Positions 7,695 through 14,907 of a DNA stretch of 34,304 bases are shown in pieces; within the stretch, counting starts at the first letter, position 1; the number at the start of each line of letters is the position of its first letter. The stretch is from a virus (Duplodnaviria > Heunggongvirae > Uroviricota > Caudoviricetes): positions 1 through 34,304 of the IMG/VR virus record IMGVR_UViG_2703718827_000010. The stretch is one strand, 5' to 3'. The position numbers were made by a program, and so were the translations under genes. Below the pieces are notes generated by a model. The model did no database searches and was not told the DNA's origin. It worked only from the letters and a program-made list of their open reading frames with translations.

Positions 7695-7749
7695 AAATGT
7701 ACCTTTAGTTACCATGCCGGTCAAGTAAGTTAATGTACTTTTTGTTACC
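7695..7749. promoter_or_regulatory. Two copies of an 18/19-nt operator-like motif (AATGTACCTTTAGTTACC at 7695-7712; AATGTACTTTTTTGTTACC at 7731-7749); candidate OL/pL region
   Basis: Same motif recurs at 8507-8524 on the other side of cI; TTGACC lies between the two copies on the minus strand. Confidence 0.45.
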
Positions 7750-7757
7750 TTGGAGGT

Positions 7758-7787
7758 GAATAAAAATGCCAGAATGACATCTGGCAT
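7758..7787 (-). terminator. Terminator hairpin immediately downstream of cI stop
   Basis: 8-bp inverted repeat ATGCCAGA / TCTGGCAT (7766-7773, 7780-7787) with 6-nt loop, followed on minus strand by TTTTATT. Confidence 0.5.
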
Positions 7788-7801
7788 TAGAAATGAGTTA
7801 C

Positions 7802-8461
7802 TTAGATGTTCTGCGTTATCTGAACTACTTTGCCTACAATGCGGCAATTTCCATCAATTGGGATCGGCTTAAAGGCGGGATTAAGCGGCATTAAATATGA
7901 GTAAGGGCTATCCCAAACAAGTTTCTTCACAGTCGCTTCTGCTGAACCATCGAGTATTGCTACGACAATTTTCCCATACAGGTCATCAAGTTGTCCGTAG
8001 TGTGGTTCAACGATAACGATTGACCCCTCCGGAATTGATGGAAGTCCGTGTGGGTTAGTCATTGACTCACCACGAACTACCAAACCGAAAACTTCATCAG
8101 AAACGTTTGCTGTGGTTTGAGTCCATGAAATCACATCAGTAAGCCTTGAGCATGCATAGGTATCAGTCCATACCCCGGCCTGAACAGCAGAGATAATAGG
8201 AACGGCCGTAGGTGGCTTCAGGTATGGGATAACTTTGGTGTCATCTTGAGTCTCATCACCCTTGCCGTAAAGAATCCATTCAGGAGTAGTCTGTAAAGCC
8301 ATCGCTAGTTGGTGAAGGTTTTCTCCGTCAGGCTTAGTTGTACCGTTCTCCCATTTGGTAACGGACACTCTACTCACCCCAAGGCGTTTAGCCAGGGTCT
8401 GCTGAGTTATATCGAGCTGGACTCGCCGGGATCTTATTCGGTCTTTCATCTCTGTTTTCAT
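7802..8461 (-). CDS. cI: CI-like prophage repressor (HTH XRE domain plus S24 LexA-like autopeptidase domain)
   Basis: N-terminal HTH (QQTLAKRLGVSRVSVTKWENG); C-terminal S24 peptidase region (VVRGESM...KIVVAIL); divergent from cro. Confidence 0.85.
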   Translation of the reverse strand: MKTEMKDRIRSRRVQLDITQQTLAKRLGVSRVSVTKWENGTTKPDGENLHQLAMALQTTPEWILYGKGDETQDDTKVIPYLKPPTAVPIISAVQAGVWTDTYACSRLTDVISWTQTTANVSDEVFGLVVRGESMTNPHGLPSIPEGSIVIVEPHYGQLDDLYGKIVVAILDGSAEATVKKLVWDSPYSYLMPLNPAFKPIPIDGNCRIVGKVVQITQNI

Positions 8462-8524
8462 GTAACCAATGTTACATTGATTCCTTGTAACTGTTGTTTG
8501 CTATTTAATGTACCTTTTGTTACC
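8461..8524. promoter_or_regulatory. cI-cro intergenic operator/promoter region: palindrome TGTAACCAATGTTACA (8461-8476) plus 18-nt motif copy AATGTACCTTTTGTTACC (8507-8524)
   Basis: Palindrome abuts the cI start codon; motif shared with the two copies left of cI; half-site resembles TGTAAC/GTTACA. Confidence 0.45.
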
Positions 8525-8553
8525 TTTAAGGCGTGAGTTAACCAGGAGGAACC

Positions 8554-8751
8554 ATGCTTAAAACTGACGTCATAGAACACTTCGGAGGGGTATCAAAAAC
8601 CGCGAGTGTTTTGGGAATTTCTCATCCTGCAGTGTGCCGATGGGGTGATGTGATCCCTCAGAAGCAAGCTTTTGTTATCGAACGTATCACTAAAGGCAAG
8701 CTTAAATACGATGCCAGCCTTTACCAAAAGTCTACAGACACAGCAGCTTAA
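8554..8751 (+). CDS. cro: Cro-like small HTH regulator
   Basis: 65-aa protein divergent from cI, AGGAGG RBS, HTH segment GGVSKTASVLGISHPAVCRW. Confidence 0.7.
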   Translation: MLKTDVIEHFGGVSKTASVLGISHPAVCRWGDVIPQKQAFVIERITKGKLKYDASLYQKSTDTAA

Positions 8752-8776: not shown

Positions 8777-9241
8777 ATGGTAGAGCAGACCCTGAAAGAA
8801 GTAGTGAAAGCGATGTGCAAGGCGTACCCCGGAGGCCGTCAGGCTATGGCTGGCGCGTTAGGCATGTCAGAAACCCAGTTCAACAACAACCTGTACGAGA
8901 AAAACGGATGCCGGTTCTTTGAAGTAACTGAGCTGGAAGCGATGGAAGACATTTCCAATACGTCATTTGTTGCTGACTACTTTGCTAAGCGTCGTGGCGC
9001 ACTGCTGGTGGACGTGCCAAGCCTGGAAGATCTGGACCGTGTTGACTTGTTCAGTCGTGCAATGCGTACAGCAGCTGCAAGGGGGCAGGTTGATCAGATT
9101 ATCCAGAAGGCGCTTGAGGATGGAGTGATTGAAAAGCATGAAGCTGAAGAGATTCAGGAACATCACCGCCGTCATCTGGCAGCGCGTGAAGAAGAAATCC
9201 GCGCGATTGTGGCCTTATTCAGCCGCCGTCAAAAGAAGTGA
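8777..9241 (+). CDS. CII-like early regulatory protein (start at internal ATG 8777)
   Basis: Position directly after cro; 154-aa protein MVEQTLKEVVKAMCKAYPGG...; assignment by position and general resemblance to phage CII/CP76-type regulators, not verified. Confidence 0.5.
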   Translation: MVEQTLKEVVKAMCKAYPGGRQAMAGALGMSETQFNNNLYEKNGCRFFEVTELEAMEDISNTSFVADYFAKRRGALLVDVPSLEDLDRVDLFSRAMRTAAARGQVDQIIQKALEDGVIEKHEAEEIQEHHRRHLAAREEEIRAIVALFSRRQKK

Positions 9242-12200: not shown

Positions 12201-12586
12201 AACTAACGTTGCCATTCCCGCCAACTGTTAACACCTATTACCGGTCCCCTGACCGCGGCGCGTTAAAGGGTAAGCATCTGATAAGTGAGATGGGGAGGAA
12301 GTTCAAGAAGAATGTTTACGCCTCTGTTGTGCAGCAGTACGGCGGTATACCTAAACCAGTTAACGTCAACGTTGAGGTAAACATAGTTCTTTTCCCGCCA
12401 GATAACAGACGGCGGGATCTGGACAACTACAACAAAGCGCTGTTCGACGCACTGACGAATGCCAGAGTCTGGGAAGACGATAGTCAGGTTAAGCGGATGG
12501 CTATCGAGTGGGGGCCGGCAGTAAAGCCTGGAAGGGTAGAAATAACGATCAGCCGTTTTGAAACTGTGGCGGGTGCAGCCGCCTGA
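12197..12586 (+). CDS. rusA: RusA-family Holliday junction resolvase
   Basis: MKLTLPFPPTVNTYY N-terminus and conserved acidic residues (RRRDLDNYNKALFDAL...WEDDSQV); ATGA overlap with upstream gene. Confidence 0.8.
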   Translation: MKLTLPFPPTVNTYYRSPDRGALKGKHLISEMGRKFKKNVYASVVQQYGGIPKPVNVNVEVNIVLFPPDNRRRDLDNYNKALFDALTNARVWEDDSQVKRMAIEWGPAVKPGRVEITISRFETVAGAAA

Positions 12587-12602
12587 TAAGTGGAGACAGA
12601 GC

Positions 12603-13328
12603 ATGAATCAGATGAACATCACCGTAATGTGCCAGGCACACCATACAGCAGCTGTTGGGCAGCAGATAACCATGTCCAGCCGTGAGATTGCAAAACTGGT
12701 CGATTCCCGGCACAGCAATGTCTGCGTAACGATAGAGCGCCTCATGAATTCCGGTGTGATTGAAGGGTATGCTGCATTGCAGTACACCCATCCCCAGAAC
12801 GGACAGACCTATCATCACTACGAAGTGAATAAGCGTGATAGCTATGTGATCGTTGCCCAGTTGTCACCAGAGTTCACGGCCCGACTTGTTGACCGCTGGC
12901 AGGAACTGGAGAACAACGGTGGAATGATAGTTCCCCGGTCACTTCCTGAGGCGCTGCGGCTTGCTGCTGACCTGGCTGAGCAGAAACAACGGCTGAGTGA
13001 AGAACTGGCAGTAGCCGCGCCAAAGGCTGAGTTTGTTGACCGTTACGTTATGGCCACCGGTTCAATGACATTCCGGCAGGTTGCCAAGCTGCTTAACGCC
13101 AAAGAGACGGAGTTTGCGATGTTCCTGATTGAGAACGGCATCATGTACCGGCTTAACCGTGTTCTCACGCCAAAGAGCAAGCATATCGAAGCAGGGCGCT
13201 TCGAGGTGAAGACGGGCACGACAAACCAGACAAATTACGCGTTCAATCAGTCCCGCTTCACCGCCAAGGGTGTTCGCTGGATTGGTGGCCTGTGGGCAGA
13301 GCATATTGCTAAGGGGCAGATAGCGTGA
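12603..13328 (+). CDS. Antirepressor (Rha-type N-terminal domain plus KilA-C-type C-terminal domain)
   Basis: N-terminal ITMSSREIAKLVDSRHSNVCVTIERL resembles Rha family; C-terminal AEFVDRYV...TFRQVAKLL...FLIENGIMY resembles KilAC; GGAGA RBS. Confidence 0.7.
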   Translation: MNQMNITVMCQAHHTAAVGQQITMSSREIAKLVDSRHSNVCVTIERLMNSGVIEGYAALQYTHPQNGQTYHHYEVNKRDSYVIVAQLSPEFTARLVDRWQELENNGGMIVPRSLPEALRLAADLAEQKQRLSEELAVAAPKAEFVDRYVMATGSMTFRQVAKLLNAKETEFAMFLIENGIMYRLNRVLTPKSKHIEAGRFEVKTGTTNQTNYAFNQSRFTAKGVRWIGGLWAEHIAKGQIA

Positions 13329-14328: not shown

Positions 14329-14907
14329 ATGATTAATCCTTCTGAAGTTGGTAAATCTGGTGAAATGGTTCGTCTTCGTACTCTGGAAAGCATCTGGATA
14401 CAGGGTAAGTTGCGCATGTGGGGCCGCTGGTCTTATATCGGCGGTGGTAGTGGTGGGAACATGTTTAACCAGCTTCTGGCATCCGGGAAAATCACCAAGA
14501 CAGCTATCAATGATGCTCTGCGCAGAATGAAGAAATCAGGAATCACCAAGCCTGAACTTGAAGCGTACCTGCGTGAAATTCTCAACAGCAAAAATAAAAG
14601 CGGTCTGGCGTTCTGTTCAGACGAAGAAGGGTTGTTAGTGGATGGTGTCATTGCTTCTGTACTGATGAATGATGACTACCGATCGCTCTATAGCGTGATT
14701 GTCGACCGCCATCGCCTACGCAAGAGCAAGCTGCAGATGGCCAATGAACTGCAGGCTAAACATCCTGACTGGCCGCTGATCACCTGTCGTCGACGCATTG
14801 ACACTTGGCTAAGTCTTGCAGAATCGATCCTGTACGCTCCAGTTTGTGACGCATTCGGCACAAATAGCGACAGATTTAAGTTGCAGAGTGAGCAAGAAAG
14901 TGCTTAA
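14329..14907 (+). CDS. Putative late-gene antiterminator (Q-like), assigned by position
   Basis: Last gene before a tR'-like terminator and the lysis cassette; sequence not matched to a specific Q family from memory. Confidence 0.45.
   Translation: MINPSEVGKSGEMVRLRTLESIWIQGKLRMWGRWSYIGGGSGGNMFNQLLASGKITKTAINDALRRMKKSGITKPELEAYLREILNSKNKSGLAFCSDEEGLLVDGVIASVLMNDDYRSLYSVIVDRHRLRKSKLQMANELQAKHPDWPLITCRRRIDTWLSLAESILYAPVCDAFGTNSDRFKLQSEQESA

Follow-up and report, generated by a model that had tools for sequence, protein, structure and literature searches.

The closest described model for the locus analysed here is the immunity region of phage P22. Its 18-bp operators consist of two 7-bp half-sites around a 4-bp centre (7-4-7); the right operator is annotated as OR3-OR2-OR1 (positions 2165-2230) with the spacing 18-7-18-5-18, and OR3 lies against the repressor ATG. 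On the left side of P22, OL1 overlaps the -10 element of PL, which has TTGACC as its -35 element. Phage lambda combines divergent cI and cro genes with a tripartite OR, operators over PR, PRM and PL, and an OL and OR that flank cI. In lambda, 434 and P22, repressor and Cro both bind every operator, with graded affinities.

The DNA studied here, referred to as the window, is the whole of a virus stretch of 34,304 nucleotides. A repeated motif and a palindrome beside its cI gene are very probably the DNA sites at which the prophage repressor and Cro would bind. We put at roughly 0.85 the probability that this is a lambdoid prophage's immunity switch following the P22 plan. In this reading, binding and the order in which sites are occupied, the points at which transcription starts, the hexamers of PR and the role of a leader hairpin are inferred from the sequence. 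The preliminary description had seen the logic of lambda OL/OR in the distribution of the motif. As far as the sequence goes, every part of that description's interpretation held up, with some corrections: the logic is the same, but the closest model is P22, with its 18-bp 7-4-7 operators and identical spacing.

The cI-cro region and the proposed right operator

The genes at the core of the locus are as follows:

7802-8461, minus strand: the 219-aa cI repressor, whose N-domain is HTH_3 and whose C-domain is an S24 autoprotease
8554-8751, plus strand: cro, 65 aa, P22_Cro family, with the ribosome-binding site AGGAGG at 8544-8549
8777-9241, plus strand: CII-like activator of the CP76/YmfL family (Pfam PF06892, phrog_101), next in the rightward operon

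The first two genes are divergent and separated by an intergenic region of 92 bp. Both domains of cI are recognised by Pfam (HTH_3, 3e-16; Peptidase_S24, 1.6e-22) and by matches in the PDB, to the N-terminal domain of P22 C2 for the N-domain (3.8e-14) and to lambda cI for the C-domain (1.5e-22). Over its full length the protein shares 44% identity with P22 C2, and residues A95-G96, S133 and K179 are invariant in an alignment with P22 C2 and YmfK. Cro matches Pfam PF14549 (1.3e-22) and the structure of P22 Cro (PDB 1rzs, 4e-13). A Q-like antiterminator is encoded at 14329-14907.

Searching the window with AATGTACCTTTTGTTACC and allowing up to three mismatches returned only three matches, all on the plus strand: 7696-7713 and 7732-7749, with one mismatch each, and 8507-8524, which is exact. 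By chance 0.02 copies are expected, and three matches were reached in none of 100 shuffles. The preliminary description had placed the copy at 8507-8524 correctly and the other two at 7695-7712 and 7731-7749, in each case one base off or one base too long. The palindrome TGTAACCAATGTTACA lies at 8461-8476, as had been described, and is part of a longer 7-4-7 dyad, ATGTAAC-CAAT-GTTACAT, at 8460-8477. Its reported overlap with the cI start also holds, since dyad and start codon (CAT at 8459-8461 on the plus strand) have positions 8460-8461 in common. All sites have the 7-4-7 form with a core half-site GTA(A/C)C, which bears out the earlier proposal of half-sites resembling TGTAAC/GTTACA. Exact matches to the degenerate pattern TGTAM-N5-GTTAC are confined, in 34.3 kb, to the four strong sites, and GTAAC/GTTAC pentamers occur seven times in the two operator regions against 0.4 expected (Poisson P ~1e-7). 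The window has no full copy beyond these; two poorer sites are present, one at 8485-8502 and a candidate at 7665-7682. The right operator and its promoters are assigned as follows:

8460-8477: OR3, the perfect dyad given above, spanning the -10 and start of PRM and reaching 2 nt into the cI ATG
8485-8502: OR2, TTGTAAC-TGTT-GTTTGCT, with a weak right half, overlapping the PR -35 and the PRM -35
8508-8525: OR1, ATGTACC-TTTT-GTTACCT, the third motif copy of the preliminary description
8469-8497, minus strand: PRM candidate, -35 ACAACA (8497-8492), 17-nt spacer, -10 TAACAT (8474-8469)
8498-8526, plus strand: PR candidate, -35 TTGCTA (8498-8503), 17-nt spacer, extended -10 TGtTACCTT

The three sites are arranged as 18-7-18-5-18, identical to P22. 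OR3 is unchanged in 56 distinct intergenic sequences of relatives, and OR1 is nearly invariant, including its central TTTT, with four variants among the 56, each carrying one change. OR2, which was missing from the preliminary description, makes OR tripartite; its right half is a poor match to the half-site, and its GTAAC and GTTTGCT are both nearly invariant among relatives.

The PRM candidate maps base for base onto the annotated PRM of P22 (2174-2202) and the RM 5' end (2168). In P22 this annotated 5' end falls within OR3, 4 nt before the c2 ATG, and it corresponds to A8463 of the window. Here the -10-like TAACAT precedes A8463/A8461 by 5-7 nt, transcription is predicted to start between A8463 and A8461, giving a cI leader of 0-2 nt, and no Shine-Dalgarno sequence is found upstream of the ATG. 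That the cI message may be near-leaderless, with this predicted start, is supported by the exact positional homology with the annotated PRM start of P22. In-frame conservation covers the first cI ATG and codons 2-4, where changes are mostly synonymous, and this stretch aligns with the N-terminus of P22 C2. A start at the second ATG (8449), which would put OR2 at a lambda-like -41.5, is disfavoured, because the -10 would then be TACATG, with a G at -7, and because codons 2-4 behave as coding. With PRM starting at 8461-8463, the centre of OR2 falls at about -31, so that the site overlaps the PRM -35; in lambda the two abut, the centre lying at -42. Activation of PRM from OR2 cannot be assumed. 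The same OR2/PRM geometry is found in the P22 annotation.

The PR candidate is the top-scoring promoter candidate on the plus strand, and all its positions are invariant in relatives. Its hexamers are weak, TACCTT (8521-8526) having 3/6 matches and depending on the extended -10, with TG at 8518-8519; the predicted start is at ~G8533. It is the least secure of our assignments and lies off the PR position of P22, appearing ~11-16 bp nearer to cro. The P22-equivalent promoter (8482-8509, TCCTTG-16-TTTAAT) is disfavoured by an unconserved -35 and a T at -11.

The proposed left operator, PL and the hairpins around it

On the other side of cI, the following features are assigned:

7697-7714: OL1, ATGTACC-TTTA-GTTACCA, overlapping the PL -10
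7733-7750: OL2, ATGTACT-TTTT-GTTACCT, upstream of the PL -35
7665-7682: candidate OL3, ATGTAAC-CATT-GGTTCGT, downstream of the PL start and inverted relative to OL1 and OL2
7696-7724, minus strand: PL promoter candidate, -35 TTGACC (7724-7719), 17-nt spacer, -10 TACATT (7701-7696)
7755-7788, minus strand: cI intrinsic terminator (t-imm), a 9-bp stem at 7765-7788 followed by UUUUUAUU
7597-7636, minus strand: terminator-like hairpin of the PL leader, 11-bp stem (7603-7613 / 7626-7636), 12-nt loop, U5 tract (7597-7601)
7655-7688, minus strand: 5' hairpin of the predicted PL transcript (MFE fold), stem CACCAGA/TCTGGTG, enclosing candidate OL3

OL1 and OL2 flank the TTGACC of PL, as they do in P22, and lie 36 bp apart from centre to centre (35 bp in P22). 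The GTCAA of this -35 element is near-invariant, with GGTCAAG in most relatives, and the half-sites of OL1 are kept across relatives while its central 4 nt vary. The PL candidate, with a predicted start at ~A7689, matches at 9/12 in the promoter scan and maps exactly onto the annotated PL of P22 relative to OL1. The operator sites of both regions overlap the best candidates for the PL, PR and PRM promoters. A second PL-like promoter over OL2 (TTCACC-17-TACATT) is probably a chance match, as its -35 is not conserved in relatives.

The candidate third left site was likewise missing from the preliminary description. In the window one of its halves is degenerate and matches the half-site poorly; most relatives have a better site at this position, for example GGGTACT-GACA-GTTACCT on the minus strand, and the site is missing in relatives with the e14-type leader block considered below.

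Two terminators had been proposed to bracket the left operators. The one following cI is a solid assignment: its hairpin has a folding energy of -13.2 kcal/mol (z = -4.8), and its stems differ among relatives yet remain complementary, a compensatory change. The second is terminator-like, but it does not simply bracket the operators: it falls beyond the predicted start of PL, within the leader. Its perfect 11-bp G+C-rich stem, followed by CUUUUUC on the minus strand (-20.7 kcal/mol, z = -6.0), points to termination, as does the single G-C to G-U change in one arm in cI-identical relatives, which keeps the pairing. It is possible, if rather unlikely, that the stem-loop (7603-7636) instead serves RNA stability or processing, is a site at which a protein binds the PL leader, or just marks the boundary of a recombination module. 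The 12-nt loop is atypical for intrinsic terminators, and the scan, which allows loops of 3-8 nt, did not call one here. The hairpin is conserved only in the closest relatives, and homology with those that are cI-identical stops exactly at its edge, at 7591. A role of this kind would also be in keeping with the lack of anything evident that would overcome a terminator: the first PL ORF (7544-7302) belongs to phrog_1744, a family of no known function, and has no Pfam hit; no N-type (gene 24) protein is evident as the first PL gene, divergent N proteins being hard to detect; and inspection by eye showed no boxA/boxB-like nut sequence in either the PL leader (145 nt) or the gap between cro and cII (25 nt). 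We nevertheless favour a terminator-like function for this hairpin.

For the predicted 5' hairpin of the PL transcript, the case for conservation by covariation is weak: RNAalifold gave no consensus for 53 aligned PL-leader 5' regions, and single relatives fold into similar 5' hairpins with different stems. At gathering thresholds, Rfam returned only a tRNA-Arg in the whole window. At permissive E-values over 6300-8600 (2.3 kb), one further match scored below E = 0.1, to AgvB (RF02702) at 7761-7813 on the minus strand (27.1 bits against a gathering threshold of 56, E = 0.021); it covers the cI terminator hairpin and was treated as a chance resemblance to a terminator. The remaining four matches had E values of at least 0.16.

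If the locus is a switch on the P22 plan, dimers of the C2-like cI and dimers of Cro would recognise the same 18-bp operators, in which two 7-bp half-sites A(T/G)GTA(A/C)C would surround an uncontacted, A/T-rich 4-bp centre. In a lysogen, repressor on OR1 and the weaker OR2 would shut off the rightward cro promoter, and repressor on OL1 and OL2 would shut off PL, with its -10 in OL1 and its -35 between the two sites. As OR3 would cover the -10 and start of PRM, Cro or excess repressor would turn cI off there. The cI message would begin 0-2 nt before its AUG, without a Shine-Dalgarno sequence, and would be ended by the terminator at 7755-7788 before reaching OL; the leader hairpin at 7597-7636 would probably limit read-through into the early-left genes.

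Conservation in relatives and alternative readings of the sites

Relatives of the repressor are encoded by 215 IMG/VR contigs, the 80 best of them being 93-100% identical. The immunity group is also represented in 57 of 5426 complete E. coli genomes, in genomes of 14 species ranging from Escherichia-like genera to Yersinia and Edwardsiella, and in induced Klebsiella and E. coli phages. A set of 97 relatives from at least 15 enterobacterial genera, whose cI is 67-100% identical, shows little or no change in the half-sites, while the inter-operator spacers and OL centres vary. The recognition helix of cI, GVSRVSVTKWE, is invariant in relatives and that of Cro, ISHPAVCRW, nearly invariant. A 45%-identical repressor (L018) with the helix GVSPSAVTQWE is accompanied by sites of the same geometry that read AGTAAG-N4-CTTACT. 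A full-text literature search on the operator sequences and the recognition-helix peptides found no experiment or paper on this specificity. Relatives also have a conserved 70-nt block in the PL leader that is absent from the window. Whether this block could be a put RNA like that of HK022 was considered: it matched no Rfam family, and blastn showed no resemblance to the PL region of HK022.

The half-sites are not all alike. The left halves of OR1, OL1 and OL2 read GTACC or GTACT (GTTCC in a few relatives), whereas every relative has GTAAC in their right halves and in the two halves of OR3. This could reflect a division of labour, in which the hybrid GTACC-N4-GTTAC sites would be repressor sites and the OR3 dyad would serve chiefly Cro, or would act as an RNA hairpin that hides the AUG of long-leader (establishment) cI transcripts. 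As RNA, the dyad would form a 7-bp hairpin pairing the AU of the AUG (-6.6 kcal/mol), and a transcript starting at 8463 is unstructured; this hairpin is, however, no more stable than those of shuffled sequences (z = -1.55). The two kinds of site are also not fixed by position, because OR1 of phage ZF40 is itself a perfect GTAAC dyad, and the graded binding of all operators by both proteins in the phages named at the outset speaks for shared sites. We consider such a division improbable. Little credence is likewise given to a broader scheme, in which the module would separate repressor and Cro more sharply than P22 or lambda do and would gate the early-left operon without N. Hybrid sites would then be tuned to the repressor and the OR3 dyad to Cro, perhaps masking the AUG of establishment transcripts; PL would yield mainly a ~100-nt transcript, made of the operator-holding 5' hairpin and then the terminator, unless some factor allowed read-through, and the 70-nt block of relatives might be a cis-acting antiterminator RNA.

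That the conserved blocks are promoter elements of PL, PR and PRM (-10, -35, extended -10) rather than operators, repeated through the similarity of the promoters, is very improbable: every site does overlap a candidate hexamer, and the half-sites read TACATT and TACCTT at their outward ends, which are -10-like. However, the half-sites of OL2 are conserved although a core promoter element would not be expected there, on the upstream side of the PL -35, and conservation tracks the dyad symmetry GTAxC-N4-GTTAC and not the limits of hexamers. In addition, the 7-4-7 palindrome of OR3 is perfect, the experimentally defined operators of P22 have the same spacing, and the half-sites change with the recognition helix in L018.

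Comparison with known immunity regions

The locus shares with lambda the arrangement of genes, operators and promoters outlined at the outset, as well as an S24 autocleaving repressor; the leaderless cI mRNA of lambda has a predicted counterpart here. The operators of lambda are 17 bp long and unrelated in sequence, its OL1 and OR1 are mirror-oriented, unlike those of the window, and it has an N/nut system. OL and OR are 2.3 kb apart in lambda, with rexAB between them, and 0.8 kb apart here.

In the cryptic prophage e14 of E. coli K-12 (ymfK-ymfT-ymfL), the order is again a LexA-like repressor, a cro-like gene and a YmfL-type CII-like gene; the E. coli homologues carry the same NCBI names, and GTAC-containing dyads are present in the intergenic region. 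The N-domain of YmfK, however, cannot be aligned with that of cI, the 31% identity being confined to the C-domain. The e14 operators, TGTACC/GGTACA, differ in spacing from those of the window, and e14 has the 70-nt PL-leader block that the window lacks.

Pectobacterium phage ZF40 and Pantoea phage AH07 have the half-sites, the OR/OL layout and the SRV..TKW helix pattern of the window. The recognition helix is identical in AH07 and has two conservative changes in ZF40, in which OL2 is degenerate; both phages carry an e14-type leader block in place of the hairpins of the window. Their immunity genes are annotated only as putative cI/cro, and no operator study was found for either in the literature. 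Very probably, ZF40 and AH07 belong to the same immunity group as the window, or to a close one.

Agreement with P22 extends to Cro proteins of one Pfam family and to OL1 and OR1 in the same orientation, not mirrored; for the almost leaderless repressor mRNA of P22, a counterpart is predicted here. P22 has an OL3 between OL2 and the repressor gene, where the window has an intrinsic terminator, its third candidate site lying downstream of the PL start. Unlike P22, the window has no evident gene 24 (N) or nut sites, and its PL leader carries the terminator-like hairpin. Where P22 has c1, the window has a cII-type gene belonging to the CP76/YmfL family.

The difference in recognition itself is small. 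Relative to P22, changes are limited to the half-site, from ATTTAAG to ATGTAAC (ATGTA(A/C)C across the sites of the window), and a few recognition-helix residues: the repressor helix is SNVAISQW in P22 and SRVSVTKW here (N to R, Q to K), and the Cro helix is SDAAVSQW in P22 and SHPAVCRW here (D to H, Q to R). Because the proteins are homologous, the geometry is identical and only these features differ, the two loci form a clean natural experiment, which can inform the specificity rules of helix-turn-helix proteins and the evolution of heteroimmunity, adding no new principle. The window offers a complete, testable map of operators and promoters for an immunity group commonly found among enterobacterial prophages. 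Compared with the known systems, the locus is very probably a lambdoid immunity switch on the P22 plan with a different predicted recognition sequence, an ordinary new immunity type.

The genes of the immunity region

Read from its sequence, the region around cI is a P22-type immunity switch of distinct specificity for which we found no published experimental characterisation, and in which operator binding and transcript starts are predicted. The proteins it encodes are of the corresponding types:

7802-8461, minus strand: cI repressor, 219 aa, with HTH_3 and Peptidase_S24 domains
8554-8751, plus strand: cro, P22_Cro family, matching the P22 Cro structure
directly after cro in gene order: CII-like gene (CP76/YmfL)
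12558-13328, plus strand: Ant-like anti-repressor gene (phrog_63), in the rightward operon
14329-14907, plus strand: Q-like antiterminator (phrog_753)

The N-domain of cI matches structures of P22 C2 and its C-domain matches lambda cI; full-length identity to P22 C2 is 44%, and Ala-Gly, Ser, and Lys are conserved. Lambdoid prophage sequence makes up the remainder of the window, which has further large ORFs toward the right. Because of the Ant-like gene, the prophage may have a second induction route, via the anti-repressor, in addition to RecA-mediated cleavage.

Putative operators on both sides of cI

With up to three mismatches tolerated (chance expectation 0.02), the 18-nt motif AATGTACCTTTTGTTACC has three matches in the 34.3-kb window, all on the plus strand, at 7696-7713, 7732-7749, and 8507-8524. 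These are the copies reported in the preliminary description, which placed the first two one base off, and the search for further copies that it proposed returned only the same three. The palindrome that it reported at 8461-8476 lies as claimed; in full, it spans 8460-8477 and has two bases in common with the cI start codon. Exact matches to the degenerate dyad TGTAM-N5-GTTAC occur at only four places, namely the three motif copies and the palindrome, and GTAAC/GTTAC pentamers are strongly enriched in both regions (P about 1e-7). All sites can be written as 18-mers with a 7-4-7 geometry:

8460-8477: putative OR3, ATGTAAC-CAAT-GTTACAT
8485-8502: putative OR2, TTGTAAC-TGTT-GTTTGCT
8508-8525: putative OR1, ATGTACC-TTTT-GTTACCT
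7697-7714: putative OL1, ATGTACC-TTTA-GTTACCA
7733-7750: putative OL2, ATGTACT-TTTT-GTTACCT
7665-7682: candidate OL3, ATGTAAC-CATT-GGTTCGT

The OR sites are laid out as 18-7-18-5-18, with centre-to-centre distances of 25 and 23 bp, and the three motif copies are directly oriented, not mirrored. Across relatives, OR3 always has GTAAC in each half, and so do OR1, OL1, and OL2 in the right half; in the left half, these three sites have GTACC or GTACT (GTTCC in a few relatives). OR1 of Pectobacterium phage ZF40, by contrast, forms a perfect GTAAC dyad. At 8536-8544, past OR1 and before the ribosome-binding site of cro, a half-site-like GT(T)AAC stands alone, with no obvious partner. Many relatives carry one at the same position (loci L003, L004, L016, and L017), reading GTAAC in several and GTTAAC in the window.

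Predicted promoters, cI start, and left leader

Three promoter candidates overlap these sites:

7724-7696, minus strand: PL candidate, TTGACC-17-TACATT, predicted start about A7689
8497-8469, minus strand: PRM candidate, ACAACA-17-TAACAT
8498-8526, plus strand: PR candidate, TTGCTA-17-TGtTACCTT, extended -10

The first two are the best leftward candidates in the window. The third is the best conserved candidate, and the -35 position equivalent to that of P22 PR is not conserved here; we give the predicted assignment of PR to these hexamers roughly even odds.

The annotated RM 5′ end of P22, 4 nt before the c2 ATG, maps to A8463, which predicts a cI leader of 2 nt, and no Shine-Dalgarno sequence is present upstream of the cI ATG. 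Use of this first ATG is supported by codons 2-4, which are conserved in frame among relatives with mostly synonymous changes, and by the alignment of the N-terminus with that of P22 C2. A PRM start at 8461-8463 would put the centre of OR2 near -31, overlapping the PRM -35, as the P22 annotation likewise implies. In lambda, OR2 lies at -42; hence, we do not assume lambda-style activation of PRM. By folding, a cI transcript starting at 8463 is unstructured. In long-leader cI transcripts, such as those from an establishment promoter, the OR3 dyad (8460-8482, minus strand) would fold into a 7-bp hairpin (-6.6 kcal/mol) in which the AU of the initiation codon is paired.

Both minus-strand hairpins of the preliminary description are present. 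In the terminator downstream of cI, pairing is kept in relatives despite differing stem sequences. The cI 3′ end and this terminator also match AgvB, a family of prophage sRNAs (7761-7813, minus strand; E = 0.021), but the 27 bits of the match fall below the Rfam gathering score of 56, and it probably reflects only terminator resemblance. The left leader and its flank contain the following features:

7655-7688, minus strand: 5′ stem-loop of the predicted PL transcript, starting at +2 and enclosing candidate OL3
7603-7636, minus strand: leader hairpin followed by CUUUUUC, -20.7 kcal/mol, z = -6
7544-7302, minus strand: first leftward ORF (phrog_1744, function unknown)
6932-7375, plus strand: convergent gene (phrog_5286, function unknown)

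The PL 5′ stems of relatives differ in sequence yet pair (for example, CACACC/GGTGTG and CCACG/CGTGG), and RNAalifold gave no consensus structure among them. The hairpin at 7603-7636 precedes the first leftward ORF, and homology with cI-identical relatives stops exactly at 7591, so this hairpin belongs to the immunity module. It is somewhat favoured as a predicted leader terminator or attenuator, with its 12-nt loop and narrow conservation leaving room for other roles; neither an N-like protein nor a nut site is evident. Beyond the edge, 6870-7590 is an insertion relative to the cI-identical relatives and holds the two convergent, overlapping genes; the plus-strand one is accompanied by a terminator-like hairpin of its own at about 7407-7437, within the minus-strand ORF. 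A tRNA-Arg(UCU) gene lies at 6573-6649 (minus strand) in the early-left region, and two short non-coding blocks beside it (6647-6726 and 6803-6874) recur in many relatives, with or without the tRNA.

At the position equivalent to the leader hairpins, directly downstream of the PL start, many relatives instead carry a highly conserved, unannotated block of about 70 nt, GCGAATCATCC...GGCTACTTCGTGGGCGTCCTGCCTGTTCGCTGTTGATG, which is absent from the window. Many prophages differing in immunity type have it: it is found in loci L004, L006-L008, L010-L012, L014-L017, L103:1960-2030, and L104:1960-2030, in E. coli K-12 e14 (L101:610-680), and in 44 records of phages, among them SfV, SfII, ST64B, ZF40, phiNP, and mEp237. 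The block matched no Rfam family, and blastn showed no similarity between it and the PL region of HK022, where putL is presumably located. It may act in cis as a leader RNA.

Conservation and comparison with P22

Repressors 67-92% identical to cI were found in 14 species genomes (Pseudescherichia, Kluyvera, Buttiauxella, Edwardsiella, Rahnella, Yersinia, and other genera), and a search of viral contigs gave 215 matches, of which the best 80 were retained. The region is also carried by 57 of the 5426 complete E. coli genomes and by four induced phages of Klebsiella or E. coli. Among 56 distinct intergenic sequences, there is little or no change in OR3, in the OR2 parts GTAAC and GTTTGCT, or in the block ATGTACCTTTTGTTACCTTT; variation falls in the 7-10 nt that separate OR3 from OR2, in the base preceding OR1, and in the leader of cro. 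On the left side, the OL1 and OL2 half-sites and GTCAA of the -35 are kept, with variation in the operator centres and the spacers. All of these relatives have the cI recognition helix GVSRVSVTKWE unchanged, and the Cro helix ISHPAVCRW is almost unchanged among them. In the literature searched, neither the operator sequences nor the helix peptides were found in any paper, nor was any treatment of cI operators in ZF40 or in the Klebsiella phages.

The SRV..TKW pattern, the half-sites, and the layout of the window are shared by Pantoea phage AH07 and by ZF40, whose repressor N-terminal domains are 79% and about 60% identical, respectively. A Xenorhabdus repressor of 45% identity has a different helix and AGTAAG-CATT-CTTACT-type sites in the same geometry, and P22 pairs the helix SNVAISQW with the half-site ATTTAAG. 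Of the indirect evidence that these proteins read the putative sites, this co-variation of helix and half-site is the strongest. The observation in the preliminary description is real, and on sequence evidence its interpretation is essentially right.

The C2 operators OR1-3 of P22, annotated at 2165-2230 of its record (L102), read from sequence as 18-7-18-5-18, as in the window, and P22 OR3 abuts the c2 ATG. The OL1-OL2 centre distance is 35 bp in P22 and 36 bp in the window, and both place TTGACC as the -35 between OL1 and OL2, with the -10 in the outer end of OL1. OL1 and OR1 of P22 are also directly oriented, so the direct orientation of the window copies looks ancestral rather than odd. 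Measured from the operators, the PL and PRM candidates fall at the exact positions of the annotated P22 promoters, with PR the exception.
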